Origin: Anaerolineales bacterium
GTDB lineage: Bacteria; Chloroflexota; Anaerolineae; Anaerolineales; E44-bin32
Reading direction: 5' to 3'
DNA: 64,000 nt
Assembly (NCBI GenBank): GCA_034430425.1
Contig: DAOUEK010000007.1
Coordinates: 1,090-65,089 of the forward strand
The notes beneath the pieces are model-generated. The model made no database searches. It had not been told where the DNA came from and was given only the letters and a program-made list of their open reading frames with translations. The translations under genes and the position numbers were made by a program. Below are positions 39,468 through 63,033 of this stretch, piece by piece. Numbering within the stretch: position 1 is the first letter of the stretch; each line of letters starts with the position of its first letter.

Positions 39468-39481
39468 TCCAATGCATTGGC

Positions 39482-39523
39482 GTCGCAGACGTATAAAAAC
39501 CGGTCATCAAACGAGTCTGCGAC
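39482..39523 (+). terminator. Stem-loop after the substrate-binding gene (GTCGCAGAC-N24-GTCTGCGAC); attenuating or mRNA-stabilising
   Basis: Perfect 9-bp arms just after the stop; no clear U-tract. Confidence 0.45.
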
Positions 39524-40530: not shown

Positions 40531-40556
40531 CCACTTTCATACAAAAGGATTAAGCA

Positions 40557-41576: not shown

Positions 41577-41662
41577 CGTAGATACAACCTGGCTTATTCA
41601 ATTTAACTATCGCGGATGACTCTTCCCACACCGTTTAGCCAAACGAATTTTCTTCTGGTGCG

Positions 41663-46256: not shown

Positions 46257-49200
46257 TTGTCATCAAAGCAAAGGGCGCAGGCAGACCCCCTCGATCGGGC
46301 CCAAAACGACCCGCCCGCTCCCGTCGGAGCGGTCTTGGTCGTCGGCGGTGGCATCGCCGGCATGCAGGCCAGCCTCGATCTGGCCGACCAGGGCTACAAG
46401 GTCCACCTGGTGGAGACGAAGTCCGCCATTGGCGGACACATGGCACAACTCGATAAAACGTTCCCCACGAACGATTGCGCCATGTGCACCATCAGCCCGA
46501 AACTCGTCGACATCGGCCGCCACCTCAACATCGATCTGCGCGTCGACACCGACGTACTCAAAGTCGATGGCCAGCCCGGCGATTTCACGGTCACCCTGCG
46601 TCATAAACCTCGCTACATTGATCCCTTAAAATGCGTCGGTTGTGGTGATTGCGTCGATGTCTGCCCGGTCGTGCTGCCCGACCCGTTCAATGAATCGCTA
46701 TCCTCGCGCCGCGCGGCGCACAAGCTGTACCCACAGGGCGTTCCCAACGCATTTGCCATCTCCAAATTGGGCATCTCTCCCTGCCGCGATGCCTGCCCTG
46801 CCGGCCAGCGAGCCCAGGGTTACATCGCCCTGATCCGCGAAGGCCGCTACGATGACGCCCTGCGCGTGATCAAGGAGGACAATCCCTTCCCCGGTATATG
46901 CGGCCGCATATGCAACCACCGCTGCGAAGATGCCTGCAATCGTGGCCTGATCGACGAGCCGATTAATATCCGCGCTTTGAAACGCTTCGTGACCGATAAG
47001 GTCTACCAGAATCCTCGCCAGGTGCGCGAACCCGTCGAAATCACCCGGAAAGCAAAGGTAGCTGTGATCGGCGCCGGACCGTGCGGCCTGACCGCCGCAC
47101 AGGATCTGGCCATGCTGGGTTATCCGGTTACTGTTTTCGAGGCGCTGCCCGTCGCCGGCGGAATGCTGCGCGTCGGGGTGCCTGAGTATCGCCTGCCGAC
47201 TGAGATCATCGAACGCGAGATCGCCGACATCCTCGACCTGGGCATTGATTTGAAACTCAACACCACGGTTGAGGACATGGATGAGTTATTCGACCAGGGC
47301 TATGAGGCGGTGCTCGTCGCGGTCGGCGCCCATGAGGGGATCCGTCTGCCGATCCCGGGCGCCGACCTTGAGGGCGTTCTGATCAATACCCGCTTCCTGC
47401 GCGATGTCCGCCTGGATAACCCGCCGGCGATCGGCGATCGTGTTCTTGTACTCGGGGGCGGTAACGTGGCTATCGACTGCGCCCGTACCGCCGTACGCAT
47501 GGGCGCCGAAGTGCACATGGCATGCCTCGAGCCGCGCGACAACTTGCCCGGCCATGCCTGGGAAGCTGATGCTGCCGAAGAGGAAGGCGTGGTCATTCAT
47601 GCTGACCGCACTTTCATCCGCATCGTCGATGACGGCAGCGGGCACGCGGCCGGCGTGGAATGCGCACAGGTCGCCCACTTTGATTTCGATCATGAAGGTC
47701 GCTTATCGGTTGAGACAGTTCCCGATTCGGAGCATGTGATCGAAGCGGGCACGATCATTTTTTCCGTTGGTCAGCGCGCTGGTCTGGCTTTCATCCCCGA
47801 TGACGCCGGTGTGGGCGTCACCGCCCAACGCACTATAGCCATCAACCCCAACACCATGGCTGCCACACGACCGGGCGTTTTCGCCGCCGGTGACAGTGTC
47901 TCTGGCACAGCGTTCGTGATCGAAGCCGTGGCCTCCGGCCATCAGGCGGCCGAAAGCATCCATCGCTATTTGCGCGGCGATGAACTCGAGCCGGAGCCCA
48001 AACCCGAACTGCCGGTGGTGAAGTTCAGCCACACCGAGCTTCAGGCGCGTGTTCGCTCCGGTGAGATTAAGCCCACGGGACGGATCCCATTGCCCGAGCT
48101 TCCCGTCGAAGAGCGTAAGGGCTGCTTTGCCGAAGTCGAAGGCGGCTACAGCGACGAAGCGGCGCAAGCCGAAGCAGCTCGCTGCCTGGCCTGTGCGCTG
48201 TGCTCCGAATGTCTCTCCTGCCAGTATATCTGTGGGCGCGACGCCATCAATCACGACGAAGTAGCATCGATCGAGCAGCTGCGTGTGGGTGCGGTGATCC
48301 TGGCCCCCGGCTATGAAATCTACAACGCCGAGCTTTCAGCCGAGTACGGCCTGGGACGCTACCCCAACGTGATTACCGCCTTGCAGCTTGAGCGTTTGCT
48401 TTCTGCCTCCGGTCCTACAGCAGGGCATGTCAACCGGCCCTCCGATGGATCACCGGCGAAGAAGGTGGCTTTCCTGCAGTGCGTCGGCTCGCGCGACAAA
48501 AGTCATGACTACTGTTCCTCAGTATGCTGCATGTACGCCGCCAAAGAAGCGATCATGATCAAAGAGCACGATCCCGAAGCCGAAGTGCACGTGTTCATGA
48601 TGGACATGCGCGCCTTCAGCAAGGGATACGAAAGCTACTACCGCCGCGCCCAGCAGCAATACGACATCCAATACACCCGCTGCAGGGTCTCCGAATTCAA
48701 AGAAGACCCGGACAGCCAGGACATCGTGGTTCGATACGCGAGTCAATCTCCCACAAATGGAAACGGAGTAACTGGCTCCAAGTCGCTGACCCCTGGGTTA
48801 TTGATCAGCGAAGAACACTTCGACCTGGTCGTGCTCTCCGTCGGCATGGAAATATCCGAAAACGTGAAGGCCCTGGGTCGAGATCTCGGTATCCAGCTGG
48901 ATGAATACGGCTTTTGCCATACGGCATTCTTCAACCCATTGGAAACCACCCGCCCGGGGATCTACGCCGTCGGGCCCTTTCGCGAACCGAAGGACATCCC
49001 TGAATCGGTGGTGGACGCCAGCGGCGCCGCAGCGCGGGCTGCCGGCTTGCTCGCCTCCGCACGCCACTCGCTTACCAGCTCACCGGAATACCCACCCGAG
49101 CGAGACGTAACAGGAGAAGATGCGCGCGTAGGCGTCTTCGTCTGTCACTGCGGCTCAAACATCGGCGGTTTTCTGGACGTGCCCAGCGTAGCCGAATACG

Positions 49201-50879
49201 CCAAATCGCTGCCCGGCGTGGTCCACGCCGAGGACAACTTGTACACCTGTTCGCAGGACACTGTGGCGCATATTACCGAGACGGTAAAAGAAATGAATCT
49301 CAATCGTGTCGTCGTTGCCTCCTGTACGCCGCACACCCACGGCCTGCTCTTCCAAGACTGCATCCGCGCGGGTGGGCTTAATCCGGCATTGTTCGATATG
49401 GCCAACATCCGCAATCAATGCTCCTGGGTGCACTCCCACGACAAGCAAGCCGCCACGAGCAAGGCGCGTAGCCTCGTTCGAATGGCCGTGGGCCGTGTGA
49501 TCACACTGGAACCGATCCACACCAGCGAAGTTGAAATCGAACACAGCGCGCTGGTGGTCGGCGGAGGGGTCTCGGGCATGACGGCTGCCCTTTCCCTCGC
49601 CGAGAACGGCTTCGATGTCCATCTGGTCGAGCGGGAAGGACAGCTGGGCGGCAATTTCAACAAGGTGCACTATACCGTAAGCGGCGATGAGCCGCGCGAA
49701 CTTTTGGAAACCCTGATTGCCGATGTCGAGGCGGAAACCCGGATTAAAACCTATCTAAACCATGAAGTAGTCCACACCGACGGATTCATGGGAAAATTCA
49801 CCACCACACTGCGAGATCGAAAAGGGGAAACGCAGGTCGCACACGGCGTGACCATCATCGCCACCGGCGCCCAAGAGTATCACGGATCAGAATACGATTA
49901 CGAGAACAACCCGCGTGTGGTCACCGGTCTGGAATTGGAAGCGCTGCTTGCCAGAGCGCATGGATCCAACATCGATCTCGAAGATCGCGCTGCCGAAGCC
50001 TGGGAAGCGATTGGCAGACAGCTTCCCGCTGAAGTGGCGATGATCTTGTGCGTAGGTCCGGCAGAGCGCTTCTGTGCACGCCTGTGCTGCACCACGGCCT
50101 TGAAACAAGCCTTGACGATCAAGCGTCTCAAACCCGAGGCGGTCATCACGGTACTTTACAAAGACATCCGCACGTATGGCTTCAAGGAATCGCTCTACAC
50201 CGAGGCGCGTGGGGCCGGGGTTCGCTTCGTTCGCTACGACGACGACAACCGACCTGTCGTACGAAGTGTTGAGGCAGGATTGGAAATCGAAATCCGGGAT
50301 CACGTCTTGGGTGAAAACCTAACCTTGTATCCGGGCTTGCTCATGTTAAGCACACCGGCCGTGCCGGCCGAGGGCTCGCGTGAGTTGGCCTCCAAATTCA
50401 AAGTCTCACTCGATCAGGACGGATTCTTCATGGAAGCGCACATTAAACTGCGCCCGGTGGATTTTGCCTCCGACGGCTATTTCATGGCCGGCATGGCACA
50501 TTATCCCAAGTTCGTCGACGAGAGCATCGTCCAGGCTCAGGCGGCCGCCTCGCGTGCCGCGCGTATCATCTCTCGCCCCACGCTGACGGCAGGTGGCGTG
50601 GTTGCCCAGGTCGACCCAACGAAATGTGTCGGCTGCCTGACATGCGTTCGCGTCTGTCCTTATGGTGTGCCCAGGGTGATACCCAATACAACCGGCGTGG
50701 GGGAGATCAGCGGGGCAGCGTATATCGAACCCACGGTTTGCCACGGCTGCGGATCGTGCGCTTCCGAGTGCCCCGCCAAGGCCATCAGCGTCATCCACTA
50801 TCGTGACAACCAGATTACAATCAAATTGGATGCTTTACTGTCGGAGACATTTGATGATAAGGTCAAGGAGAAGGTGTAG
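46257..50879 (+). CDS. hdrA: HdrL-type large HdrA (two HdrA FAD modules plus GltD/NfnB-like NAD(P)H-binding insert), copy 1
   Basis: LDKTFPTNDCAMC; CRDACP..CGRICNHRCEDACNR; GAGPCGL; GGGNVAID; FLQCVGSRD..CSSVCCMYAAK; C-terminal 2x[4Fe-4S]. Confidence 0.93.
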   Translation: MSSKQRAQADPLDRAQNDPPAPVGAVLVVGGGIAGMQASLDLADQGYKVHLVETKSAIGGHMAQLDKTFPTNDCAMCTISPKLVDIGRHLNIDLRVDTDVLKVDGQPGDFTVTLRHKPRYIDPLKCVGCGDCVDVCPVVLPDPFNESLSSRRAAHKLYPQGVPNAFAISKLGISPCRDACPAGQRAQGYIALIREGRYDDALRVIKEDNPFPGICGRICNHRCEDACNRGLIDEPINIRALKRFVTDKVYQNPRQVREPVEITRKAKVAVIGAGPCGLTAAQDLAMLGYPVTVFEALPVAGGMLRVGVPEYRLPTEIIEREIADILDLGIDLKLNTTVEDMDELFDQGYEAVLVAVGAHEGIRLPIPGADLEGVLINTRFLRDVRLDNPPAIGDRVLVLGGGNVAIDCARTAVRMGAEVHMACLEPRDNLPGHAWEADAAEEEGVVIHADRTFIRIVDDGSGHAAGVECAQVAHFDFDHEGRLSVETVPDSEHVIEAGTIIFSVGQRAGLAFIPDDAGVGVTAQRTIAINPNTMAATRPGVFAAGDSVSGTAFVIEAVASGHQAAESIHRYLRGDELEPEPKPELPVVKFSHTELQARVRSGEIKPTGRIPLPELPVEERKGCFAEVEGGYSDEAAQAEAARCLACALCSECLSCQYICGRDAINHDEVASIEQLRVGAVILAPGYEIYNAELSAEYGLGRYPNVITALQLERLLSASGPTAGHVNRPSDGSPAKKVAFLQCVGSRDKSHDYCSSVCCMYAAKEAIMIKEHDPEAEVHVFMMDMRAFSKGYESYYRRAQQQYDIQYTRCRVSEFKEDPDSQDIVVRYASQSPTNGNGVTGSKSLTPGLLISEEHFDLVVLSVGMEISENVKALGRDLGIQLDEYGFCHTAFFNPLETTRPGIYAVGPFREPKDIPESVVDASGAAARAAGLLASARHSLTSSPEYPPERDVTGEDARVGVFVCHCGSNIGGFLDVPSVAEYAKSLPGVVHAEDNLYTCSQDTVAHITETVKEMNLNRVVVASCTPHTHGLLFQDCIRAGGLNPALFDMANIRNQCSWVHSHDKQAATSKARSLVRMAVGRVITLEPIHTSEVEIEHSALVVGGGVSGMTAALSLAENGFDVHLVEREGQLGGNFNKVHYTVSGDEPRELLETLIADVEAETRIKTYLNHEVVHTDGFMGKFTTTLRDRKGETQVAHGVTIIATGAQEYHGSEYDYENNPRVVTGLELEALLARAHGSNIDLEDRAAEAWEAIGRQLPAEVAMILCVGPAERFCARLCCTTALKQALTIKRLKPEAVITVLYKDIRTYGFKESLYTEARGAGVRFVRYDDDNRPVVRSVEAGLEIEIRDHVLGENLTLYPGLLMLSTPAVPAEGSRELASKFKVSLDQDGFFMEAHIKLRPVDFASDGYFMAGMAHYPKFVDESIVQAQAAASRAARIISRPTLTAGGVVAQVDPTKCVGCLTCVRVCPYGVPRVIPNTTGVGEISGAAYIEPTVCHGCGSCASECPAKAISVIHYRDNQITIKLDALLSETFDDKVKEKV

Positions 50880-51000: not shown

Positions 51001-51477
51001 ATGGCCGAATTCGAGTCGCAAGTCGTCGCTTTTTGCTGCAGCCACTGCGCCTACAACGCTGCCGATCTCGCCGGCAGCCTGCGTATTCAGTACCCGGCGT
51101 CGATAAAAATCATCGAAGTGCAGTGCACCGGGCGTGTAGATATCGAACACATGCTCCATGCTTTCGAAGGCGGCGCCGACGGCGTAATGGTTGCGGGTTG
51201 AATGCCCGGCGACTGTCATTACCTGGAAGGTAATACAAACGCAAGACGACGGGTGGAATTCGCCCGCAAACTTTTGGAAGAAATCGGTCTCGAAAGCCAG
51301 CGGCTGCAGATGATCAACATATCCGCCGCCATGGCTGGCGAATTTTCCTTTGCCGCGGCAGAGATAACGGCAGAGATTCAACGTCTGGGACCCAATCCAC
51401 TACGTATCAACGGCGCCGGACAATCCGACGGTAATGCACCCGCCGTTGAGATAGCGAAAGCGGATGGCGAAAGTTGA
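51001..51477 (+). CDS. mvhD: MvhD-family subunit, selenocysteine form, copy 1 (in-frame UGA 51199-51201)
   Basis: ORFs 51001-51201 and 51202-51477 are in frame and read GADGVMVAG-UGA-MPGDCHY; UGA aligns with the Cys of the 35255 paralog. Confidence 0.93.
51214..51237 (+). other. Putative bacterial SECIS element (TGTCATTACC-TGGAA-GGTAATACA)
   Basis: Hairpin starts 12 nt after the UGA; 9-bp stem with one bulge; G-containing apical loop. Confidence 0.8.
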
Positions 51478-52657
51478 TTCCCTCAAACGCTTCGATGTTT
51501 TCGCAGAGCTTCCCGAGGATGCTCTGATGGAAATTTCGCGCCTGGCCAAACAGGAAGAACATCCTGAAGGAACGGTTCTTTTTCAGGAAGGTGCCACAGC
51601 GCATCAACTCTACCTGATATTGGATGGCAAGATCTCACTCGAGATGCTCGTGCAATTGGGCAGCACAGGCACACCCCGTCGCGCGGCGCTTAATATCGCC
51701 GGCCCAGGCAACGCCGTCGGCTGGTCGAGTATTGTCCCTCCCTATCTCTACACATCCTCCGGTGTGTGTATTGAAGATGTCAACCTGCTGACACTTCCCG
51801 GCGAAGATATACGCAGCTATATTACAGAACATCCCGACATCGGATGTGCAATTTACCAGCGTACGGCATCCTTGATCCGCGGACGAATGAGTAATGCCAC
51901 ATCGATGCTGATGTACTTCCTCTTCATCGTCTCCCATGAATTGAAACGACCCCTGGCCGCTGTGGAAAACTACCTGCAAATACTGTCCGGCGGTTATGCC
52001 GGCGAACTCAGTCCCAAACAAACCCACCTGATCGAACGTAGTACGCTGCGCATCGCCGACCTGCGCAACCTGATCAGCGACATTCTCGATTTCGCCCGCA
52101 TGCAGCCCGAGCAGATTCGCGCAGACTTCGAAAGTCTCGATCCGACTGAGCTCGGCGCCGAAGCGATCGAGGAAGTACGCTTGGCGGCGTCAGAGAAGAA
52201 CGTGCAGCTCAAAGTCATCGGGCCAACTGAATATCGGCCCATCGTCGTCGCTCGACGCCGGCTGCGGCAAGTCATCGCCAATATCCTGGCCAACGCAGTC
52301 AAGTTTTCCCCCGAGGGGAGCACCGTCACCCTAACCGCCCATGACACACCTAAAGCCCTGGTAATCGAAGTGATGGACGAGGGTATCGGCATCCCTGATG
52401 ATGAGCAGGAACACATATTCGATGATTTCTTCCGCGCCAGCAACGTGGGCGAATTCAGGGGCGCCGGCCTGGGTCTCTCCATCGCATATAAAATCATCGA
52501 AGCCCATGAGGGCTCGATCGAAGTCAAGAGCCCCTACGAAAAAGCGAAACCCGGAACCAAGTTCACCATCACCATCCCTCGGACGCTCCCTCTGCCTGGT
52601 CAGAGTAGGAAGTCTGAGCCCGGAACCCATGAGGAGAGGGGGGGATCACATGCGTGA
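51464..52657 (+). CDS. Soluble histidine kinase with N-terminal cNMP-binding (CRP-like) domain
   Basis: LFQEG...LYLILDGKISL cNMP fold; SHELKRPL; NAVKFS; DEGIGIP; GAGLGLSI. Overlaps the mvhD stop. Confidence 0.9.
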   Translation: MAKVDSLKRFDVFAELPEDALMEISRLAKQEEHPEGTVLFQEGATAHQLYLILDGKISLEMLVQLGSTGTPRRAALNIAGPGNAVGWSSIVPPYLYTSSGVCIEDVNLLTLPGEDIRSYITEHPDIGCAIYQRTASLIRGRMSNATSMLMYFLFIVSHELKRPLAAVENYLQILSGGYAGELSPKQTHLIERSTLRIADLRNLISDILDFARMQPEQIRADFESLDPTELGAEAIEEVRLAASEKNVQLKVIGPTEYRPIVVARRRLRQVIANILANAVKFSPEGSTVTLTAHDTPKALVIEVMDEGIGIPDDEQEHIFDDFFRASNVGEFRGAGLGLSIAYKIIEAHEGSIEVKSPYEKAKPGTKFTITIPRTLPLPGQSRKSEPGTHEERGGSHA

Positions 52658-53414
52658 GCAACCATATATTTTGATCGTGGACGACGATCCGGATATCGTC
52701 GAGGGGATTACCGCCGTGCTGGAAACGCGAGACTACCGCCTTGCCAGCGCTGGCGATGGCATTGCCTGCATGAAACTTATCCGGGAGAAGACCCCAGATT
52801 TATTGATCCTGGACATGATGATGCCGCGCATGGACGGTTTCGCCGTCATCCGCGAGCTTCGCGGCGATCCGAAGTATGTTGGTCTGCCCATCATTATTCT
52901 CACCACGGTCATTGAAGATGCCGCCTACCGCCGCTATGAACTTGAGACAGGGCTGGCTATGGATGTGCAAGCCTATATCGAGAAACCGGCACCGCCGGAT
53001 GTGTTGCTGCGCCACGTCACAGCGGTAGTCGATCTGCCCTATATTATTGTCGCCGATGACGACCCGGATATCGTTGCCGCGCTTACCACGGTCCTTGAAT
53101 CCAGGCCCTATCGGGTCAGCTCGGCCGCCAACGGTCAGAGCTGCATCGAACTGGTGCGCAAGCGCAAACCCGATCTACTCATCCTGGATTTACTCATGCC
53201 GCACATGGATGGTTTTGCCGTGATTCGCGAGCTGCGCAGCGAACCCCAATTTACCGATCTACCCATCATCATCCTCACTACCGTGGTTGAAGATGCCAGC
53301 CGCCGGCGTTACGAACTCGAGACGGGTCAGGACATGGCTGTTACACGATACATGCAGAAACCCGTGCCACCCAAGATGCTGCTCAAGCAAGTGAATGAGG
53401 TGTTGAAAAAATGA
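52650..53414 (+). CDS. Tandem REC-REC response regulator without output domain
   Basis: Two near-identical receivers (VDDDPDI..LLILDMMMP..EKP and ADDDPDI..LLILDLLMP..QKP); GAGG-rich RBS before ATG 52650. Confidence 0.9.
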   Translation: MREQPYILIVDDDPDIVEGITAVLETRDYRLASAGDGIACMKLIREKTPDLLILDMMMPRMDGFAVIRELRGDPKYVGLPIIILTTVIEDAAYRRYELETGLAMDVQAYIEKPAPPDVLLRHVTAVVDLPYIIVADDDPDIVAALTTVLESRPYRVSSAANGQSCIELVRKRKPDLLILDLLMPHMDGFAVIRELRSEPQFTDLPIIILTTVVEDASRRRYELETGQDMAVTRYMQKPVPPKMLLKQVNEVLKK

Positions 53415-56400
53415 GCGCGGACAAGGTCACCGGCGCAGTGATGGTCGTAGGCGGCGGTGTCGCCGGCATGCAGGCCAGTCTCGATCTGGCCGAGCAGGGA
53501 TTCCGGGTATTCCTGGTGGAAAGCCAGTCCGCCATCGGCGGTCACATGGCCAAACTGGACAAGACATTCCCCACCAACGACTGTGCCATGTGCATCATCA
53601 GCCCCAAGCTGGTTGAAACCGGTCGTCACCTCAACATCGACTTGATGGTTGACAGTGAAGTCGATAAGGTCGATGGGCAAGCGGGAGACTTCACCGTTAC
53701 CGTGCGGCGTAAACCGCGCTACATCGACATCGAGAAATGCGTTGGATGCGGAGATTGCGCTGAAGTGTGTCCGGTCGTGCTCACCGATAGGTTCAACGAA
53801 GGTTTGGCACCGCGCAAGGCGGTCTACAAACTCTATCCACAGGCGGTCCCCAATGCCTACACGATCGACAAGTTGGGCATTGCCCCTTGCCGCAACGCCT
53901 GTCCCGTCGATCAACGCGCCGAGGGTTACATCGCATTCATTGCAGAAGGCCGCTACCGCGAGGCCTACCGTGTGATCAAGGAAGACAATCCCTTCCCCAG
54001 TGTGTGTGGACGCACCTGCCATCACCCTTGCGAAGGCCACTGCGCTCGCGCCCTAGTCGACGAGCCGGTGAGCATCATGGCCCTGAAACGCTTCGTGATG
54101 GATTACGCCCTGGCCTACGGGCGCGAGAAAGTCGAACCCGTACCCCGCACACGACCGGAGTGGATCGCCGTGGTCGGTGCTGGGCCAGCCGGATTAACCG
54201 CCGCCCACGACCTGGTGAGAATGGGGTACGGCGTGACGGTCTACGAAGCGCTTCCCGTCGCCGGCGGGATGATGCGCGTCGGCATCCCCGCTCATCGTCT
54301 GCCCAAGGGCGTTTTACAGGACGACATCGACGACATCCTCGCGCTGGGCGTGGTGCTGAAAACCAACTCGCCGATTTCCGATCCCACGAAGTTGCTTAAG
54401 GAAGGTTACGACGCCGTTTGTCTGGCGACGGGGATTTCCACCCGCGATCATTCGTTGACCGTGGAAGGCGAGGACGCCGAGGGTGTACTCTCCGCAGCGA
54501 CCTTCCTGCGCAAAGTCAACCTGGGAGAACCGATCACCGTCGGCGAGCGCGTAGCTGTGATCGGCGGCGGCGTGACCGCCCTCGACGCAGCCACCGTTGC
54601 CCGACGTCTGGGCGCGGAAGAAGTTATCCTGGCCTACGACCGCCCACGCGGCGAGCTACCCGCCTACCAGTGGGAAATGGACGCCGTCGAAGCTGAAGGC
54701 ATCCGCCAGCTCGAACACACAACACTGACGCGCATCCTGACCAAAAACGACAGGGTGGTCGGTGTCGAACTGGCCCGCACCGGCCGCGGTACGACTAAAG
54801 ACAAACATGGCCGCCGACGCCCCAAGATCGAAGCCGGCAGCGAATTCACCCTCGAAGTCGATACCGTGATCGGTACCATCGGTCAGCAGTCCGACTTGAA
54901 CTACCTGCACCCTGCGTTCGAGGATCTAAACGGCGACAGCAGAACGCTGGCTTGTGAAGACGCCCCCGGATTGTTCGTCGTCGGTGGGCGCAAGACCGGC
55001 GCCAGCTTCATCGTCGAAGCCATTGCCCTGGGACATCGCGTGGCGAAATCGATTCATCATTATCTACAGGGCACATTCGACAAAATGGAAAAAATCACAC
55101 CACCGGTGGTCAAAGTCACACGCGAGGACATCGAGCGCCGCGTTAAAACGGGGGAGATCGAACTGCTGCCGCGCAACGAATCCAGGCTGCTGCACATGGA
55201 CGAGCGCGTGACAAGTTTTCGTGAAGTGGTTTTGGGGTTGACCGAACGCCAGGCGCGCGCCGAAGCCAAGCGCTGCCTGCAGTGCGGGAACTGTTCGGAA
55301 TGCCTGGCCTGCGTCTATGCTTGTGGCGCGGACGCCATCGATCACGAGATGGTCGAGACCATCCAGGATGTAAAGGTCGGCGCCATCATCCTGGCTCCCG
55401 GTTACCAGACCTATCAGGCTGAACTCTCCGCGGAATACGGTTTGGGCCGCTATCCCAATGTGATCACCGCACTGCAGCTCGAGCGTTTGCTCTCCGCCTC
55501 CGGACCGACCACAGGGCACGTAGTGCGCCCTTCGGACGGGCGCCCGGCGAAGAAAATCGCCTTCCTGCAGTGTGTCGGCTCCCGAGATCAGAATCACGAT
55601 TACTGCTCGGCCGTATGCTGCATGTACGCCACCAAGGAAGCCATTCTGGTCCGAGACCATGATCCCGAAGCCGAAGTGGATATCTTCATGATGGACATCC
55701 GCGCCTTCAGTAAAGGCTACGATGCCTATTACCAGCGTGCCCGGGAACAATTCGACATCCAGTACACCCGCTGCCGAGCATCTGAATTCAAGGAAGCCCC
55801 GGACACCAAGAACATTACGATCCGATATACAGAAGAACAAGGTGTCGGGGTTCGAAACCAGCCTGATTCCGATTTGCCCGAAACACGCATAACCGAAGCG
55901 GAATACGACCTCGTCGTGCTGTCGGTGGGCATGGAAATTTCACAATCCGTTAAAGAGCTCGGCCAGAGATTGGGCATCGAGCTCGACGACTACGGTTTTT
56001 GCAAAACGGCTTTCTTCAATCCCGTTGAAACCTCACAGCCGGGAATCTACGCTGCGGGACCTTTCCGTGAGCCTAAAGACATTCCCGAATCCGTGGTCGA
56101 CGCCAGCGGCGCAGCGGGTCAAGCTGCAACGCTGCTCGCCTCGGCTCGTGACCAACTGACACGCCAGGCCAGTTATCCGCCCGAAAAAACGGTCGGCGAA
56201 CCACGTGTAGGCGTCTTCGTTTGTCACTGCGGCTCCAACATCGCCGGTTACATGGATATCGAAGCCGTCACGGATTACGCCGCCAATCTGCCGCATGTGG
56301 TCCATGCCGACCACATGCTTTACACGTGCTCGCAGGACAGCACGGCGCAGATCCAGGCTTGCATCGTCGAACACGATTTGAACCGCGTCGTGGTGGCTTC

Positions 56401-57973
56401 CTGCACACCGCGCACGCACGGCTCGCTCTTCCGTGACGTGGTGCGTCAGGCGGGTTTGAACGAGTACCTGTTCACAATGGCCAACATCCGCAACCACTGC
56501 TCGTGGGTACACTCGCATGAACCCGATATCGCCACAGAAAAGGCGCAGGATTTAATCCGCATGTCCGTCTCCCGCGTGGTGGGCCTCGAGCCGCTGCACA
56601 CGCAGCCGGTTCCGGTGTGCCAGCAGGCGCTGGTCATCGGCGGCGGTGTGGCAGGCATGAACGCCGCGCTTGCGCTGGCAGAACAGGGTTTCCCCGTCCA
56701 CCTGGTCGAGAAAGAAAAAACCCTGGGCGGCAATTTGCGCGGGGTCTATTTCAATCATGATCCTGGTGATTCGAACGCCGGGCGCGATCCCCAGAATTAT
56801 TTACGGACGTTGATCAAAGAGATTGCAACTCATCCTGCGATAACGACGCACCTATCGAGCCAGGTGCTTCACACCACAGGCTTCGTCGGCAATTTCATCA
56901 CCATGCTGCAGAAGGAAAACGGCAGCCAGGCGGAAATCCAGCACGGTGCCACAATCGTCGCCACGGGCGGCCAGGAGTATCGCGGGGAGGAATATGGTTT
57001 TGCGGAAAGCCCGTGCGTGGTCACTGGACTGCAGTTCGAGGCTCTGTTGGCCAAAACTGGCCGCAAACGGGTGAAACTCGACGAGAAAACGAGTGCGACC
57101 TGGAAGTTGTTAGATAAAAAACCGCCGGATCAGGTGCTGATGATCCAATGCATCGGCCCGGCGGAGGAGACATGCGCCCGCACATGCTGCACCACCGCCT
57201 TGAAACAGGCTCTGCAGCTAAAAGCCCTGCATCCCGAGGCGCGCGTCGTCATGCTGCATCGCGACATGCGTACGTATGGATTCAAGGAGCGTCTTTACAA
57301 GCAGGCGCTCGAGCAAGGCGTGCTTTTCGTGCGCTACGACCCGACGCATAAACCCCAGGTATCTATCAAGGCTGACGGCCAAGTCCACGTGAACGTGCAG
57401 GATCCCGTACTCGGTACGCCGTTGAACTTCAAACCCGACTTACTCGTGCTTTCCACACCTCTCATCCCGGCGAAAGAAAATCAGACGTTGGCCACGAAGC
57501 TAAAGGTGCCCGTCGATTTGGATGGTTGGTTCCTGGAGGCGCACGTCAAACTACGGCCGGTGGATTTCTCCAACGAGGGCATTTTCCTGGCTGGGGCTGC
57601 CCACTACCCCAAACTGCTCGACGAGAGTATCGTACAAGCCCAGGCGGCCGCTTCGCGGGCTGCAACCATCCTGTCCCGCCAGACCTTAGATGCCGGCGGT
57701 TCCGTCGCCCGCGTTGATCCTGAAGCCTGCGTTGGCTGCCTGACGTGCGTGCGCATCTGCCCATATGGTGTGCCGCAGATGCAAATTAATCTTACCGGGG
57801 TTGGTGGCATCGTGGGCGCGGCCTACATCGAACCCGCTGTTTGCCAGGGATGCGGGACATGCGTTGCCGAGTGCCCCGCCTACGCCATCGAACTGCTGCA
57901 TTATCGCCACGACCAGTTGGAGGATGAGGTGGGTGCCTTATTCGAAACGAAGATTGAAGTACGTGAAGGGTGA
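53411..57973 (+). CDS. hdrA: HdrL-type large HdrA, copy 2
   Basis: Same domain order as copy 1: LDKTFPTNDCAMC, CRNACP..CGRTCHHPCEGHCAR, GAGPAGL, CSAVCCMYATK, terminal ferredoxin motifs. Confidence 0.93.
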   Translation: MSADKVTGAVMVVGGGVAGMQASLDLAEQGFRVFLVESQSAIGGHMAKLDKTFPTNDCAMCIISPKLVETGRHLNIDLMVDSEVDKVDGQAGDFTVTVRRKPRYIDIEKCVGCGDCAEVCPVVLTDRFNEGLAPRKAVYKLYPQAVPNAYTIDKLGIAPCRNACPVDQRAEGYIAFIAEGRYREAYRVIKEDNPFPSVCGRTCHHPCEGHCARALVDEPVSIMALKRFVMDYALAYGREKVEPVPRTRPEWIAVVGAGPAGLTAAHDLVRMGYGVTVYEALPVAGGMMRVGIPAHRLPKGVLQDDIDDILALGVVLKTNSPISDPTKLLKEGYDAVCLATGISTRDHSLTVEGEDAEGVLSAATFLRKVNLGEPITVGERVAVIGGGVTALDAATVARRLGAEEVILAYDRPRGELPAYQWEMDAVEAEGIRQLEHTTLTRILTKNDRVVGVELARTGRGTTKDKHGRRRPKIEAGSEFTLEVDTVIGTIGQQSDLNYLHPAFEDLNGDSRTLACEDAPGLFVVGGRKTGASFIVEAIALGHRVAKSIHHYLQGTFDKMEKITPPVVKVTREDIERRVKTGEIELLPRNESRLLHMDERVTSFREVVLGLTERQARAEAKRCLQCGNCSECLACVYACGADAIDHEMVETIQDVKVGAIILAPGYQTYQAELSAEYGLGRYPNVITALQLERLLSASGPTTGHVVRPSDGRPAKKIAFLQCVGSRDQNHDYCSAVCCMYATKEAILVRDHDPEAEVDIFMMDIRAFSKGYDAYYQRAREQFDIQYTRCRASEFKEAPDTKNITIRYTEEQGVGVRNQPDSDLPETRITEAEYDLVVLSVGMEISQSVKELGQRLGIELDDYGFCKTAFFNPVETSQPGIYAAGPFREPKDIPESVVDASGAAGQAATLLASARDQLTRQASYPPEKTVGEPRVGVFVCHCGSNIAGYMDIEAVTDYAANLPHVVHADHMLYTCSQDSTAQIQACIVEHDLNRVVVASCTPRTHGSLFRDVVRQAGLNEYLFTMANIRNHCSWVHSHEPDIATEKAQDLIRMSVSRVVGLEPLHTQPVPVCQQALVIGGGVAGMNAALALAEQGFPVHLVEKEKTLGGNLRGVYFNHDPGDSNAGRDPQNYLRTLIKEIATHPAITTHLSSQVLHTTGFVGNFITMLQKENGSQAEIQHGATIVATGGQEYRGEEYGFAESPCVVTGLQFEALLAKTGRKRVKLDEKTSATWKLLDKKPPDQVLMIQCIGPAEETCARTCCTTALKQALQLKALHPEARVVMLHRDMRTYGFKERLYKQALEQGVLFVRYDPTHKPQVSIKADGQVHVNVQDPVLGTPLNFKPDLLVLSTPLIPAKENQTLATKLKVPVDLDGWFLEAHVKLRPVDFSNEGIFLAGAAHYPKLLDESIVQAQAAASRAATILSRQTLDAGGSVARVDPEACVGCLTCVRICPYGVPQMQINLTGVGGIVGAAYIEPAVCQGCGTCVAECPAYAIELLHYRHDQLEDEVGALFETKIEVREG

Positions 57974-57981
57974 AGGCGAAA

Positions 57982-58422
57982 ATGGCCGAAAATGGAAAAG
58001 ACCTGCAGATCGTCGCCTACTGCTGCCATCATTGCGCTTACGCTGCCGCAGATCTGGCTGGTGTGTTACGCATCCAGTATCCGGCGCAGACCAAGGTCGT
58101 CGAAATTCCCTGCTCCGGACGTTTGGATGTGCTCGAGGTGCTGCATGCCTTCGAACGCGGTGCTGACGGTGTAATGGTCGCCGGTTGACTGCCCGGTGAC
58201 TGTCATTACCTGGAAGGTAATGTTAACGCCAAACGTCGCGTGGAGAAACTCAAACAACTATTGGACTCGATCGGGCTGGAACCCGAGCGCGTGGAGATGT
58301 TCAATCTCTCCTCGGCAATGGCTGCACAATTCGCCGAAACGGTGAGGAACATGGTAGCGCAGATTCAAAGTGTTGGCCCGAGTCCCTTGCGGCTCGCTGC
58401 TGAGGGAATAACCGAACCATAA
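57982..58422 (+). CDS. mvhD: MvhD-family subunit, selenocysteine form, copy 2 (in-frame UGA 58186-58188)
   Basis: YCCHHCAY..IPCSGR..GADGVMVAG-UGA-LPGDCHYLEGN continues in frame into ORF 58240-58422. Confidence 0.93.
58201..58225 (+). other. Putative bacterial SECIS element (TGTCATTACC-TGGAA-GGTAATGTTA)
   Basis: 7-bp perfect stem CATTACC/GGTAATG; 21 nt identical to copy 1; same 12-nt offset from the UGA. Confidence 0.8.
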
Positions 58423-58485
58423 AATTATTGGTAACAGGATTCCGGATACAATCAATACCCATCCGGTATTCAAGGAGAGCGAAGT

Positions 58486-59172
58486 ATGATCATTGCAGAA
58501 CAAAAACCACTGGAGGAGATCAAGGCTTTGATCGCGGATGCCGAAAATGTATTGGTCGTTGGCTGCGGCACCTGCGTGACGGTATGCTTTGCCGGCGGGG
58601 AGAAGGAGGCCGGCATCCTGGCCAGCAGCCTGCGCATGTCGACCAAACTCGACGGCGGCCCCAAAGCTGTGGAGCATGTTACCGTGCAGCGCCAGTGCGA
58701 ATGGGAGTATATCGACCCCATCGGGGATCGTGTCGCTGAGGCAGATATGGTGCTTTCGATTGGATGCGGTATCGGTGTGCAGGCGCTCGCCGAACGCTTC
58801 CCGGATGCCATTGTCGTTCCCGGGTTAAATACCTCCTTCTTGGGCTTGCCTACGGAACAAGGTGTTTGGGAAGAACGCTGCGCCGCTTGCGGCGAGTGCA
58901 TCCTCGGATTGACGGGTGGAATCTGCCCCATTGCTCGCTGCGCCAAACAGCTGCTCAATGGACCTTGCGGCGGGTCGCAAAACGGTGTTTGTGAAATCGA
59001 CCCGGATACGCCCTGCGCCTGGCAGTTGATCTACGACAAACTGAAATCACAAAATCGTCTGCACCTGCTGACGGAAATTCAAGCGCCGAAGAACTGGTCC
59101 AGCAGCCGCGACGGCGGTCCTCGAAAAATCACCCGTCAGGATTTACGTCTGGCGGCGGAAGAATCTGAGTAG
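58486..59172 (+). CDS. metV: Methylene-THF reductase Fe-S/Zn subunit MetV
   Basis: GCGTCVTVC, RQCE, CGIGVQ, CAACGECIL..GICPIARCAKQLLNGPCGG..CE..CAW. Confidence 0.93.
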   Translation: MIIAEQKPLEEIKALIADAENVLVVGCGTCVTVCFAGGEKEAGILASSLRMSTKLDGGPKAVEHVTVQRQCEWEYIDPIGDRVAEADMVLSIGCGIGVQALAERFPDAIVVPGLNTSFLGLPTEQGVWEERCAACGECILGLTGGICPIARCAKQLLNGPCGGSQNGVCEIDPDTPCAWQLIYDKLKSQNRLHLLTEIQAPKNWSSSRDGGPRKITRQDLRLAAEESE

Positions 59173-59190
59173 GCGAAAAGGAGCGAAGCC

Positions 59191-60180
59191 ATGACAAAAA
59201 CATCGAGCAATGGATACAAATCCGGCTCTCGCCTGGAACGCCTGCTGCGCACCGGCGAATTCGTGGTCACCGGCGAGTTGGGCCCGCCGCAGGGTGCTGG
59301 CGGGGACGTCATCCGTGAGAAAGCTGTCCTGTTAAAAGGCGTAGTCGATGCGGTAAATATCACCGATAATCAGACTGCCATCGTACGCATGTCCTCGATT
59401 GGCGCCGGTACGATCACCGTGCAGGAGGGTGTGGAACCGATCATCCAGATGACCTGCCGCGACCGCAACCGTCTGGCGATCCAATCCGATCTACTGGGCG
59501 CCTACGCCCTGGGCATGCGCAACGTGCTCTGCCTGACCGGCGATCACCAATCCTTCGGCAACCACCCTACCGCCAAGAACGTCCATGATCTGGACTCGGT
59601 GACGTTGATCCAGATGGTAGTGAAGATGCGAGATGAAGGCAAGTTTGAATGTGGAGATGAAATGAAAGGGATCGAACCGCGCTTCTTCGTCGGCGCAGCG
59701 GCCAATCCCTTCGGCGATCCTTTCGAATTCCGCCCACTCCGTCTGGCAAAGAAAGTCGCCGCCGGCGTGGATTTCATCCAGACACAGTTGATCTACAACA
59801 TCGAACGCTTCGCCGAATACATGCAGAAAGTGCGCGAACTCGGCCTGCACGAGAAGGTATACATTTTGGCCGGCTTGGGTCCGCTGAAGTCTCCGGGCAT
59901 GGCGCGTTACATGCGCGATCAGGTGCCGGGCCTGGACGTACCCGATATCTACGTCGACCGCATGATCGAAGCCGCCAAGGGCATCGATAAAGAAGACAAG
60001 AAAGCCCGTTCCCAGGCCTGGCGTGAGGAAGGCATGAAAATCACCATCGAGCAGATCAAGCAGATGCGCGAGATCGAAGGCGTCGCCGGTGTGCACGTGA
60101 TGGCAATTGAATGGGAAGAGGCAGTCAAACCGATCGTCGAGGGCGCCGGATTGCTGCCGCGTCCGGAACCGGCGGCGTAA
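59191..60180 (+). CDS. metF: Methylenetetrahydrofolate reductase MetF
   Basis: ELGPP, NITDNQ, QMTCRDRNRLAIQSDLLGA, LTGDH, KKVAAGVDFIQTQ. Confidence 0.95.
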   Translation: MTKTSSNGYKSGSRLERLLRTGEFVVTGELGPPQGAGGDVIREKAVLLKGVVDAVNITDNQTAIVRMSSIGAGTITVQEGVEPIIQMTCRDRNRLAIQSDLLGAYALGMRNVLCLTGDHQSFGNHPTAKNVHDLDSVTLIQMVVKMRDEGKFECGDEMKGIEPRFFVGAAANPFGDPFEFRPLRLAKKVAAGVDFIQTQLIYNIERFAEYMQKVRELGLHEKVYILAGLGPLKSPGMARYMRDQVPGLDVPDIYVDRMIEAAKGIDKEDKKARSQAWREEGMKITIEQIKQMREIEGVAGVHVMAIEWEEAVKPIVEGAGLLPRPEPAA

Positions 60181-60190
60181 GGAGATGTCT

Positions 60191-61585
60191 ATGGAGACAA
60201 AACTCAGCACCGATCTGGCCGAACGCATCCGGGAAGCCACCGGTGAGAACGTGTTCCTCTGTTATCACTGCGTGAAGTGCACCTCCGGTTGCCCCCTGAT
60301 GGAGCATTTCGACCTGGCGCCCAACCAGGTGATGCGCGCCGCTCAGTTGGGTATGGAAGACATGATCTTCGAGAGCAAATCGCCCTGGCTGTGCGCCTCC
60401 TGCCAGACCTGCACCACTCGCTGCCCGCAGGGCATCGACATCGCCCGTGTGATGGACTTTATCGTCGGCGAGGCGATGGCCAAAGGCATCAAACCCAAGG
60501 TGCCCGAAGTCGCCCTGTTTAACAAGGTCTTTTTACGCGACATCGACATACTGGGCCGCTCCTACGAGCTGGGGTTGATGGTCGAGATGAACATACGCAC
60601 CAGGCAGCCCTTCAAGGACGTCGGCCTGGGGCTAGACATGATCAAGCACGGCAAGATCGCCTTCCTGCCCTCCGTGATCCGCAAACGCAAGCCGAAGGCG
60701 GAAAAACCACCTCCAGAACGGGAGTCTAAAGAGGTTGGTTATTATCCCGGCTGTTCGTTACATTCCTTGGCCAGGGAGTTTAACCTCTCGGCATTGGCGA
60801 CGCTGGAAGCGCTCGATCGCAAGCCCGTGGAGCCGAAAAACTGGATTTGCTGCGGTTCTTCGCCCGCCCACCGCGTGGACCACGAGCTTGCGGTGCAGAT
60901 GCCGCTCGAAAGCCTGGCACTTTATGAAATGGAAGGCGTTAGCGAGGTTACCCTGCCCTGCGCCATGTGCTTCAACCGCTTCAGGGCCGCGGCGAGAGAA
61001 GTGCGCCTCGATCCCGAATTGAAACAGGAAATGGACCAGGAGTTGGGCTATGCGTATCAAGACAGCCTGGCGATATCATCGCTGCTGGATTACGTCGTCG
61101 AGAACATTGGCCTGGAAGCCGTAGCCGAGAAGGTCAAAAAGCCGCTCGCAGGGTTGAAAATTGCCTGCTATTACGGCTGCCTGCTAACCCGTCCACCCGA
61201 AATCACCGGATCGAAAGAACCGGAATACCCCATGTCCATGGACCGTTTGATGAAGGCGCTGGGGGCAGAGCCAATCGACTGGGACCGTAAAGTGTCCTGC
61301 TGCGGCGCGTCCCTGTCCCTTACGGCGACCGGCATCGTACTCGAAATGAGCGCTGATATCATCGAAAACGCACACGCCCGCGGCGCCGATCTCGTGGCCG
61401 TGGCCTGCCCGATGTGCCACGCCAATATCGACGGACGCCAGGTACAAATGGACATCACACAACCGGTCCCGGCGCTGTATTTTACCCAGCTGATGGCCCT
61501 GGCCTTCGGCATGCCGGAGGAAGCTGCGTTGAAATTCAACATGGTTGATGCGCGACCACTGCTGAAGGAACGAGGTTTCCTATAG
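60191..61585 (+). CDS. Fused HdrC-HdrB heterodisulfide-reductase-like subunit
   Basis: HdrC motifs CYHCVKCTSGCP and CASCQTCTTRCP, followed by two CCG domains (YYPGC..CCG..CAMC; YYGC..CCG..CPMC). AAGGAG RBS. Confidence 0.92.
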   Translation: METKLSTDLAERIREATGENVFLCYHCVKCTSGCPLMEHFDLAPNQVMRAAQLGMEDMIFESKSPWLCASCQTCTTRCPQGIDIARVMDFIVGEAMAKGIKPKVPEVALFNKVFLRDIDILGRSYELGLMVEMNIRTRQPFKDVGLGLDMIKHGKIAFLPSVIRKRKPKAEKPPPERESKEVGYYPGCSLHSLAREFNLSALATLEALDRKPVEPKNWICCGSSPAHRVDHELAVQMPLESLALYEMEGVSEVTLPCAMCFNRFRAAAREVRLDPELKQEMDQELGYAYQDSLAISSLLDYVVENIGLEAVAEKVKKPLAGLKIACYYGCLLTRPPEITGSKEPEYPMSMDRLMKALGAEPIDWDRKVSCCGASLSLTATGIVLEMSADIIENAHARGADLVAVACPMCHANIDGRQVQMDITQPVPALYFTQLMALAFGMPEEAALKFNMVDARPLLKERGFL

Positions 61586-61611: not shown

Positions 61612-62235
61612 TTGCGTAAAGCGCATACTAAAATGATTCGGGCGGCAAGGGAACGCAAGAGTCAAATGCACTCACGACTATGCGAGTTGAGAACCCGTCA
61701 TCCGCTGCAAGGTCGAGAGCTGCCCCCGATTCGCGAGACCGTTGGCCATTGGGTCGACCGTTGGCAGTTGAACCACTTCATCCAGCGCATATCACCGTTT
61801 CAATCCGAAGCGGTCGAGCGCGGTCCGCTGCCGTTCATCATTCTGGCCGAGACCGGCCAGGACGTGCGCCACTGCGCCAACTGCCGCAACTGCGAGGACT
61901 GGACAACTCCCGGTATGGATCTCAACTTTGGAGAGATTCTGCGCGCCGCGGCGCGGAACGACCCCATCGCGCTGCAGAATCAGTCCCTGTGGAACTGCGA
62001 CGATGTGTTCACAAACACGATCCATTGCCATCAAGGCTTCGACATCCCGGCCGTGATCCGTACGCTGCGTCGTGAGGCGAAACTGCGCGGCTACCACAAG
62101 CGCATTTATCGGCTGCGCGCCCTGCACTCGCGGATCCCCAATTGGAGACCACCGATACGATCTCCCCGAATCGACCGAGAACGGATAGAATCCCTGCGTA
62201 GGAAGCTGGAAAACATCAACCGCTTCAAATCATAG
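61612..62235 (+). CDS. Degenerate HdrC-like protein retaining ligands for only one [4Fe-4S] cluster
   Basis: CANCRNC..MDLNFGEILR..SLWNC..IHCHQGFDIPAVIRTLRREA aligns with HdrC. Start codon uncertain. Confidence 0.7.
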   Translation: MRKAHTKMIRAARERKSQMHSRLCELRTRHPLQGRELPPIRETVGHWVDRWQLNHFIQRISPFQSEAVERGPLPFIILAETGQDVRHCANCRNCEDWTTPGMDLNFGEILRAAARNDPIALQNQSLWNCDDVFTNTIHCHQGFDIPAVIRTLRREAKLRGYHKRIYRLRALHSRIPNWRPPIRSPRIDRERIESLRRKLENINRFKS

Positions 62236-62253
62236 CTAAACCCGAGGAAACCA

Positions 62254-63033
62254 ATGAAACTCGCCATCACCGGAAAAGGTGGTGTGGGCAAAACCACGCT
62301 CACTTCCCTACTAGCCTATGCCTACGCCGAAAAAGGCTTTCAAGTTCTGGCGATCGACGCCGATCCCGCCCCCTGTCTGGCCGAAGCGCTGGCCTTCCCC
62401 AAAAAACTACTGGAGGGATTGACCCCCATCGCCCGCATGGACGACCTGATCTACGAACGCACCGGCGCCAAGCCGGGTGCAACCGGAGGCTACTTCAAGC
62501 TCAACCCGCGCGTGGACGACATCCCGGATCAATTCTCGGCCGTGCATCGCGGCATCCGTTTACTGGAGATGGGCGCCGTAGAGATGGGTGGATCGGGCTG
62601 CATCTGTCCCGAGAGCGCCATCCTGCGCGCCCTGACCACCCACATTCTCCTGCAGCGCAACGAAGTCATCCTGCTCGACATGTACGCCGGCGTGGAACAT
62701 CTCGGCCGCGCCACGGCGGCCGCCGTCGACGCCATGCTGATTGTGGTCGAACCGACCAAACGCAGCCTGACCACCGCCGAACAGATCAAATCGCTGGCGG
62801 AGGACATCAAACTGAAGAACCTATACATCGTGGGCAGCAAGGTACAGGGGGAAGAAGATCGGGCCTTCATCGAAAGCAACAGCCCCGGGCTGCCGGTGAT
62901 CGGGCACCTGCCGCACGATCCGCATGTGCGCCAGGCCGATCGGGACGGCGCGGCGCTCTATGATCTGGCACCTGAGATGGCGAAAGCCACACAGGCCATT
63001 ATGCAGGCGTTGGAAGCGAAGCGCGAGGACTAA
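62254..63033 (+). CDS. cooC: CO dehydrogenase Ni-insertion ATPase CooC (second paralog)
   Basis: GKGGVGKTT, IDADP, KLNPRVDDIP, GSGCICPES, AGVEHLGRAT. Confidence 0.92.
   Translation: MKLAITGKGGVGKTTLTSLLAYAYAEKGFQVLAIDADPAPCLAEALAFPKKLLEGLTPIARMDDLIYERTGAKPGATGGYFKLNPRVDDIPDQFSAVHRGIRLLEMGAVEMGGSGCICPESAILRALTTHILLQRNEVILLDMYAGVEHLGRATAAAVDAMLIVVEPTKRSLTTAEQIKSLAEDIKLKNLYIVGSKVQGEEDRAFIESNSPGLPVIGHLPHDPHVRQADRDGAALYDLAPEMAKATQAIMQALEAKRED

Follow-up and report, generated by a model that had tools for sequence, protein, structure and literature searches.

The locus analysed here raises the question of how a methylene-tetrahydrofolate (methylene-THF) reductase (MTHFR) of the Wood-Ljungdahl pathway receives its electrons in the Chloroflexota, and whether energy could be conserved in this step. 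The stretch of DNA under study (the window) comprises 64,000 nucleotides of contig DAOUEK010000007.1 from the Anaerolineales bacterium assembly GCA_034430425.1. Its open reading frame (ORF) list, the translations, and the Pfam and NCBIfam matches revealed five genes on the same strand (+) at positions 53411-61585, in the order hdrL-mvhD-metV-metF-hdrCB, which encode subunits related to heterodisulfide reductase (Hdr), the adaptor MvhD and the reductase MetVF. A first-pass annotation had proposed in this place a candidate NAD(P)H-driven, electron-bifurcating MTHFR with a fused HdrCB, related to the HdrCBA-MvhD-MetVF complex of Moorella thermoacetica. The ORFs lie at exactly the coordinates that it had given for five contiguous, co-oriented genes, and the Pfam, NCBIfam and PDB matches bear out its gene identities as well as the relation to the Moorella cluster. 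Judged by its sequence, the cluster is a real Moorella-type, Hdr-linked MTHFR gene cluster in an uncultured Anaerolineae bacterium. The region probably represents the form that the Hdr-type ('type IV', Moorella-type) Wood-Ljungdahl MTHFR takes in Chloroflexota (Anaerolineae), with the electron routing proposed below; the parts and their evolutionary linkage can be documented directly, and the mechanism would be as reasoned by analogy with homologues.

The two genes of the reductase itself are adjacent. The metV gene (58486-59172, +) encodes the small, Cys-rich Fe-S subunit of MetVF-type MTHFR (Pfam PF12225, DUF5981/MTHFR_C, 7.8e-38) and, after a gap of 18 nt, metF (59191-60180, +) encodes the catalytic flavoprotein subunit (Pfam PF02219, MTHFR, 1.8e-36). 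Orthologues of metV found in synteny show 65-85% identity. Concerning known structures, no relative of MetV was found in the PDB, MetF matched only distant NAD(P)H-type MTHFRs (E ~1e-8), and no PDB structure was found for a MetVF-Hdr complex. Alongside metVF, the cluster encodes MvhD, an HdrC with two cubane motifs and an HdrB with two CCG motifs, as is characteristic of Hdr-type MTHFRs. The intergenic gaps along the five genes are 8, 63, 18 and 4-10 nt, and this spacing suggests translational coupling. Gaps this short, or overlapping, would also fit co-transcription of the genes. A scan of the region for promoter and terminator consensus sites gave sites that were fewer, or no more numerous, than in shuffled sequences.

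The largest subunit is HdrL (hdrL, 53411-57973, +; 1520 aa), a fused HdrA pseudo-dimer with the Pfam domains Pyr_redox_2, Fer4_20, Fer4 and FAD_oxidored. Against the PDB it matched HdrA 5odc_A (E = 5.6e-186) and NfnB/GltD-like proteins (E = 1e-60 to 1e-97). The chain 5odc_A, which is HdrA of Methanothermococcus thermolithotrophicus, was used as the reference for the residue-level alignment, where HdrL residues 7-154, 627-856, 930-1087 and 1324-1512 correspond to residues 143-290, 292-510, 3-160 and 468-651, respectively. Module 1 of HdrL (residues 1-~910) presents a thioredoxin reductase (TrxR)-like flavin adenine dinucleotide (FAD) domain with an inserted ferredoxin domain. Within this module, residues 157-626 make up an NfnB/GltD-like module for FAD, NAD(P)H and two [4Fe-4S] clusters, which splits the ferredoxin domain between its Cys motifs at 110-120 and 628-638. 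Module 2 (~925-1520) begins with an MvhD-like N-terminal domain, continues with a TrxR-like FAD domain into which no ferredoxin domain is inserted, and ends in a C-terminal 2x[4Fe-4S] domain. Rossmann motifs are located at residues 14, 256, 385 and 1077. This is the architecture that marks an Hdr-type MTHFR, namely a large HdrA in which a GltD-interrupted TrxR-like domain is followed by a C-terminal HdrA that lacks the inserted ferredoxin domain.

The same family is also recognized by E/K residues at the HdrA-type flavin sites. This signature, for which E356/K409 of the M. thermolithotrophicus HdrA is the reference, is used to separate bifurcating from non-bifurcating HdrA, and alignment and motif search placed it in both modules of HdrL (E691/K742 and E1210/K1265), as a signature in the sequence only. 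HdrL is predicted to hold three flavin sites, two of the HdrA type, both with E/K, and one of the NfnB/GltD type with an NAD(P)H site. The name HdrL, which the first-pass annotation also gives to this protein, was coined for Desulfobacterium autotrophicum (PMC2702500). HdrL is no departure from Moorella, because the M. thermoacetica HdrA (1487 aa, 162.8 kDa) has an equal architecture, with the same GltD insertion and both E/K pairs (E696/K750 and E1204/K1246) (PMC9430772).

At the other end of the cluster, hdrCB (60191-61585, +) encodes one polypeptide of 464 aa, or of 466 aa if translation begins at ATG 60185. As listed, the ORF opens at a TTG (60107) that still belongs to metF, but an AAGGAG site precedes ATG 60185 and ATG 60191, one of which is the real start. 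In the protein, an HdrC-like 2x[4Fe-4S] domain (residues 1-~150) is joined through a linker of low confidence to a complete HdrB that has two CCG motifs of five Cys each. In the comparison with solved methanogen Hdr complexes, HdrC corresponds to residues 6-106 and full-length HdrB to residues 181-463. An AlphaFold2 model built on 12 homologues (predicted local distance difference test, pLDDT, 81; predicted template modelling score, pTM, 0.85) was superposed on HdrB 5odc_B with a template modelling (TM) score of 0.87 and a root-mean-square deviation of 2.2 A, and on HdrC with a TM score of ~0.5. The 18 Cys residues, eight in the HdrC part (two CxxCxxCxxxCP motifs) and ten in the HdrB part (two C..CCG..CxxC motifs), are invariant in 12 homologues with 38-80% identity. 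Domain matches, model and invariant residues agree with the earlier observation that HdrC and HdrB are in one polypeptide with all Cys motifs present.

An assignment of HdrCB to HdrD of the Methanosarcina HdrDE was considered and rejected, since the fusion architecture would fit but there is no HdrE or other membrane partner, and the closest non-fused relatives are ordinary HdrB proteins of ~290 aa from soluble complexes. With no membrane partner and with stand-alone soluble HdrB as nearest relatives, HdrCB is hence taken as a soluble fusion of HdrC and HdrB.

The remaining subunit, MvhD of the FlpD family (mvhD, 57982-58422, +; alternative start GTG 57970, overlapping the hdrL stop), is a 146-aa selenoprotein with selenocysteine (Sec) at residue 69. 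It matches the Pfam family FlpD (2.4e-49 when U is taken as C) and aligns over its full length with MvhD/VhuD of solved Hdr complexes. The in-frame TGA (58186-58188, +) lies within 'VMVAG*LPGDCHY', where it replaces the Cys of the G-C-x2-G-D-C-H-Y motif, and in the archaeal VhuD 9sfi_K the residue aligned with Sec69 is the second Sec (X). Such an in-frame UGA at a Cys position, followed by a selenocysteine insertion sequence (SECIS) hairpin, is what distinguishes a bacterial selenoprotein of this kind. A SECIS-like hairpin, CAUUACCUGGAAGGUAAUG (58204-58222, +), was found with a core stem AUUACC/GGUAAU and a loop with GG, starting 18 nt after the U of UGA.

When folded as a single sequence, the hairpin of the window is insignificant (z-score -0.67); for this reason, the SECIS claim rests on the comparison of Sec and Cys forms over 77 mvhD copies from the window and the fetched loci, 30 of which carry TGA and 47 TGT or TGC at the same codon. 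A 6-bp stem AUUACC-N(3-7)-GGUAAU with a G-rich loop, 18-19 nt past the UGA, is present in 29/30 TGA copies and in 0/47 Cys copies. The Cys copies are without the stem even when they encode the same or nearly the same residues (H-Y/F-L-E-G-N), using other codons. The local minimum free energy is -7.4 kcal/mol in TGA copies versus -4.2 kcal/mol in Cys copies (Mann-Whitney p = 7e-8). In two TGA copies (L076 and L056) the stem is kept and the loop differs. The sole TGA copy without the AUUACC/GGUAAU stem belongs to a Desulfocucumis metagenome-assembled genome (MAG; L038, 8570-8617), which has another, equally stable hairpin (-9.1 kcal/mol) spanning the same codons; this SECIS may have evolved independently or have been remodelled.

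On this comparison, the TGA of mvhD is a genuine selenocysteine codon, and the Sec that the first-pass annotation had read in MvhD is borne out. Its interpretation as a pseudogene or a sequencing error was rejected, since 30 independent copies share this codon and a dedicated hairpin accompanies it. No tRNA gene of any kind, hence no tRNA-Sec, was found in the scan of the window. In public records the codon has been read as a stop: in the gene call of GCA_964385395.1 (contig CAYLOZ010000001.1; L081, 792-998), MvhD ends at the TGA and has 68 aa instead of 146. It is likely that MvhD is truncated at the Sec codon throughout such MAG records.

The five genes are not associated by chance. A distribution survey of the HdrCB fusion with metVF, which the first-pass annotation had suggested as a check, treated as informative those 26 loci whose HdrCB reaches at least 44% identity and whose upstream sequence is long enough for a judgement. 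All of them (26/26) present hdrL-mvhD-metV-metF-hdrCB in the order of the window, so the linkage is far beyond chance, and in loci on shortened contigs the upstream end is still metF or metV. An identical HdrCB protein is encoded on contig CAYLOZ010000001.1 of the MAG GCA_964385395.1, and the closest relatives (65-93% identity) come from Anaerolineae, Anaerolineales or Chloroflexi MAGs. Among the loci surveyed, a fused HdrCB next to metVF is the norm in Chloroflexota and not a peculiarity of the window. Beyond this phylum, the same five functions appear in another gene order in Planctomycetota (L048, L059 and L060), the order of the window recurs in Thermoleophilia (L064 and L066), and hdrC and hdrB are sometimes unfused among these loci. 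Relatives that are themselves fused are found in at least 592 species-representative genomes, and remoter fused HdrCB proteins, from Chlorobi, Bacteroidota and Desulfobacterota, adjoin hdrA-mvhD with no metVF.

Among known systems, the HdrCBA-MvhD-MetVF of M. thermoacetica (Moth_1191-1196; type IV) has the same six functions, as compared through its published description (PMC9430772). By that description, both share the domain order of a giant HdrA with the two E/K signatures, metV beside metF, and mvhD after hdrA. However, the Moorella order is hdrC-hdrB-hdrA-mvhD-metV-metF versus hdrA-mvhD-metV-metF-hdrCB here, HdrC and HdrB form one polypeptide here, MvhD carries Sec, and the phylum is Chloroflexota rather than Firmicutes. 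The earlier description of the cluster as reordered, Sec-containing and HdrCB-fused relative to Moorella was therefore right in all three differences.

Within the same class, the account of marine Anaerolineae (DscP3, An-B22, SM23_63 and others, from single cells and MAGs) by Sewell 2017 (PMC5736913) includes an hdrABC-mvhD-metVF cluster in which hdrC is translationally fused to hdrB, with a two-component system nearby, and it reads the cluster as a Moorella-type bifurcating reductase. These clusters, which belong to genomes other than that of the window, resemble the present one in the fused HdrCB, the adjacent two-component system and the Wood-Ljungdahl context. In its passages on this cluster there is no mention of a Sec in MvhD, an hdrL duplication or an upstream hdrAA-mvhD pair. 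The fused HdrCB variant is thus already known at the genomic level, since Sewell 2017 (PMC5736913) described it in marine Anaerolineae; what is added here is the comparative evidence for the SECIS, the fused form as the rule in Chloroflexota, and a conserved extra HdrA/MvhD module.

The best structural precedent for the Hdr-type core is the class II benzoyl-CoA reductase from Geobacter metallireducens, whose cryogenic electron microscopy structure shows BamE, BamD and BamF as the bifurcating core with an NADH-linked input (bioRxiv 10.64898/2026.04.10.717634). Both systems combine an HdrA dimer fused into one chain (BamE in Geobacter) with an HdrBC fusion (BamD) and a Sec-MvhD adaptor (BamF). 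Nevertheless, its input goes through a separate HydBC-like BamGHI and not through a GltD module within the chain, and its low-potential output is a tungsten enzyme and not MetVF. Moreover, the distal non-cubane cluster of BamD is degenerate whereas both motifs are intact in HdrCB, and the Sec of BamF is at residue 19, near the N terminus, whereas it occupies the second conserved position, residue 69, in MvhD.

The methanogen HdrABC-MvhAGD/Vhu complexes (5ODC, 7BKB, 8RVU and 9SFI) have in common with the cluster the folds and cluster motifs of HdrA, HdrB, HdrC and MvhD. In contrast to them, there is here no hydrogenase or formate dehydrogenase partner and no heterodisulfide of coenzymes M and B (CoM-S-S-CoB), HdrB and HdrC are fused, and in place of the HdrA homodimer there is one asymmetric fused chain, a pseudo-dimer that includes an NAD(P)H module. 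Desulfobacterium autotrophicum HRM2, a sulfate reducer, offers a further likeness. Its HdrL is described as an Hdr/glutamate-synthase fusion with an NADH site and with mvhD always next to it, accompanied by a soluble HdrD that is an HdrCB fusion and by several Sec-MvhD proteins (Strittmatter 2009, PMC2702500). There, hdrL has other neighbours, for instance dsrABC after hdrL1-mvhD, and the description of these genes mentions no hdrL-metVF linkage (PMC2702500).

Apart from the five genes, the window encodes a second pair, hdrL2-mvhD2(Sec), 2.5 kb upstream of hdrL, which was not in the first-pass annotation. HdrL2 (46257-50879, +; 1540 aa) is 57% identical to HdrL and has the same architecture and motifs, and mvhD2 (51001-51477, +) encodes a second Sec-MvhD, whose TGA occupies 51199-51201 and is followed by the same hairpin. 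In most other Anaerolineae hdrL is present once, and this copy resembles hdrL2 (59-67%) more than the metVF-adjacent hdrL (52-56%). Between the two copies, as likewise in three other loci (L004, L005 and L027), there are genes for a sensor kinase (cyclic nucleotide-binding, HisKA and HATPase domains) and a response regulator with a likely start at ~52650 (together 51464-53414, +); start and stop overlap at mvhD2/kinase (-14 nt), kinase/regulator (~-8 nt) and regulator/hdrL (-4 nt).

Further upstream, hdrAA and mvhD3 (Cys type) are located at 31723-35704 (+). HdrAA (1074 aa) is a fused HdrA pseudo-dimer without the GltD insert. A layout likewise absent from the first-pass annotation is that an hdrAA-mvhD(Cys) pair is directly upstream of hdrL in most related genomes, at least 14 of them (L003, L006, L008, L009, L011, L013-L017, L021, L023, L029 and L045); in the window, ~10.5 kb, including galactose-utilisation and sugar-transport genes, separate hdrAA-mvhD3 from hdrL2. 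The genes at 35817-42853, between the Hdr modules, are galT, a LacI-family regulator, a sugar ABC transporter and galK. This galT-galK stretch suggests sugar fermentation with the Wood-Ljungdahl pathway as electron sink.

The carbonyl branch is represented by an acs cluster (cooS, acsB, acsD, acsC, RACo, cooC and acsE; 14942-25589, +), which the first-pass annotation had already located in this window and which would use the methyl-THF made by the MTHFR. Since neither fhs nor folD was found among the genes of the window by Pfam, the window contains the carbonyl branch and the MTHFR without the rest of the methyl branch. Right after acsE, at 25620-27994, there are a malic-enzyme ORF and a thioredoxin-reductase-like ORF with a listed overlap of 187 nt; the latter probably starts later than listed. 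Downstream of hdrCB, positions 61612-63033 contain a 207-aa ORF without a Pfam or NCBIfam match, for which matches of 42-49% were found in L003 and L039 only, followed by a CooC/MinD-type ATPase that recurs 3' of hdrCB in five loci (L002, L003, L005, L021 and L027).

Regarding the mechanism, NAD(P)H would be oxidised at the GltD-like module of HdrL, which sits in the ferredoxin domain that forms the low-potential arm in methanogen HdrA, and from this module electrons would pass to an HdrA-type flavin. One branch would then run from the flavin-proximal [4Fe-4S] cluster through HdrC/HdrB to MetV and MetF, where methylene-THF would be reduced. If the flavin bifurcates, the other branch could leave through the C-terminal ferredoxin domain and MvhD towards a low-potential acceptor, most simply ferredoxin. 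The Sec of MvhD could join thiol/selenol redox switching, as the archaeal VhuD also has Sec at that position. The potentials of NADH and ferredoxin are -320 mV and about -450 mV, respectively. The E0' of methylene-THF is about -200 mV (PMC9430772), and with these three values the thermodynamics of bifurcation would be about balanced. The physiological role is likely reductive, with CO2 as electron sink or in acetogenesis, because sugar-uptake genes and the acs cluster are nearby.

NAD(P)H-driven bifurcation is, however, hypothetical, as it also is in the Moorella and Sporomusa enzymes, and so is the energy-conserving step that the first-pass annotation had proposed; several points weigh against the routing proposed here. 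The gene position alone does not show which hdrL-mvhD pair is the partner of MetVF, because the window has two copies and the metVF-adjacent hdrL is the more divergent one. A reductive or an oxidative direction is not readable from sequence, and the intact non-cubane clusters of HdrB have no explanation if no disulfide takes part. No bifurcation has been demonstrated for the nearest studied Hdr-type MTHFRs (PMC9430772). The first-pass annotation had expected MetVF to stay with its Hdr subunits, and in the nearest studied system, Sporomusa ovata, the opposite has in part been seen: MetVF was purified without Hdr subunits, took neither NAD(P)H, ferredoxin nor disulfides as co-substrates, and showed no detectable bifurcation or confurcation (PMC9430772). 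On the other side, the Hdr, MvhD and MetVF proteins of S. ovata contact one another in pull-downs, and in Moorella NADH is oxidised by HdrA and the genes of the cluster form a single transcription unit (PMC9430772).

Several other explanations have to be considered. The Hdr module could simply carry electrons from NAD(P)H at the GltD-like site through Fe-S chains and HdrCB to MetVF, as an NAD(P)H:methylene-THF oxidoreductase with no second acceptor and no energy coupling. This would be in accordance with the NAD(P)H module built into HdrL, with the failure to detect bifurcation in any Hdr-type MTHFR so far (PMC9430772), and with the structure of the class II benzoyl-CoA reductase, where one of the two HdrA-type FADs does not bifurcate and is structural (10.64898/2026.04.10.717634). 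Nevertheless, the E/K signature is kept at both HdrA-type flavin sites, and ~2800 residues of Fe-S and flavin machinery with Sec and two non-cubane clusters would be disproportionately large, given that Acetobacterium manages this reaction with NADH by means of a three-subunit RnfC2-MetVF (type III) (PMC9430772). Moreover, no direct coupling of NADH to methylene-THF was seen with Moorella preparations, according to the summary in the same source (PMC9430772). An uncoupled transfer of this kind is considered unlikely.

Likewise unlikely, and to about the same degree, is that the complex works by confurcation, with two donors such as reduced ferredoxin and NAD(P)H or with a partner on MvhD, or that it operates in reverse and oxidises methyl-THF in syntrophic acetate oxidation. 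In favour of such a function, electrons enter through MvhD as adaptor in every Hdr complex solved so far, and many uncultured lineages can run the Wood-Ljungdahl pathway in either direction. Furthermore, clostridial MetVF alone appears to use reduced ferredoxin in vitro (PMC8760232, PMC8515935), and confurcation has been proposed for S. ovata, but the confurcation assays in that organism were negative (PMC9430772). In addition, neither in the window nor in any of the 26 syntenic loci does the cluster adjoin a gene for a hydrogenase, a formate dehydrogenase or another donor, and the sugar-uptake neighbours would better fit a reductive electron sink.

The intact HdrB part could also point to disulfide coupling, in which the high-potential acceptor reduced by HdrCB would be a disulfide, either of low molecular weight or in a protein, with MetVF on another branch. 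The HdrB fold is kept in the model of HdrCB, and both invariant 5-Cys non-cubane motifs are those that form the disulfide-reducing site of methanogen HdrB. However, no thiol carrier (DsrC, TusA or a lipoate-binding protein) was found in the cluster or its conserved flanks, glutathione and lipoate were without effect in S. ovata (PMC9430772), and the fused HdrBC homologue of the benzoyl-CoA reductase feeds a flavoprotein and not a disulfide (10.64898/2026.04.10.717634), so that this function seems very improbable.

That MetVF alone is a ferredoxin-dependent reductase and the Hdr proteins, as mere neighbours, serve another process can hardly be maintained, since, although MetVF-only enzymes exist and the S. 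ovata MetVF purifies on its own (PMC9430772), the linkage is strict in 26/26 loci, is re-created in another gene order in Planctomycetota and recurs in Thermoleophilia, the gene spacing suggests translational coupling, and pull-downs in S. ovata revealed physical contacts (PMC9430772).

Under the Moorella-type reading, which is preferred here, a more far-reaching and rather improbable extension could be considered, in which the working unit in Anaerolineae would exceed the five genes. The ancestral Anaerolineae cluster might have been hdrAA-mvhD(Cys)-hdrL-mvhD(Sec)-metV-metF-hdrCB, with both HdrA/MvhD modules, HdrCB and MetVF assembled in a supercomplex like that of the benzoyl-CoA reductase. 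Two flavin-based steps could be coupled in such a supercomplex, one where NAD(P)H enters at the GltD module and one where electrons are split a second time at an HdrA-type flavin. In it, HdrCB would pass electrons to MetV and not to a disulfide, and the selenol of MvhD would serve one-/two-electron switching. If true, it would name the long-sought missing partner of the Hdr-type MTHFRs.

For the family as a whole, the form with a fused HdrCB, often containing Sec, is standard in Chloroflexota and is also present in Planctomycetota and Thermoleophilia. With five rather than six subunits, it is a natural simplification of the complex and provides a broad set of candidates for expression and structure work.

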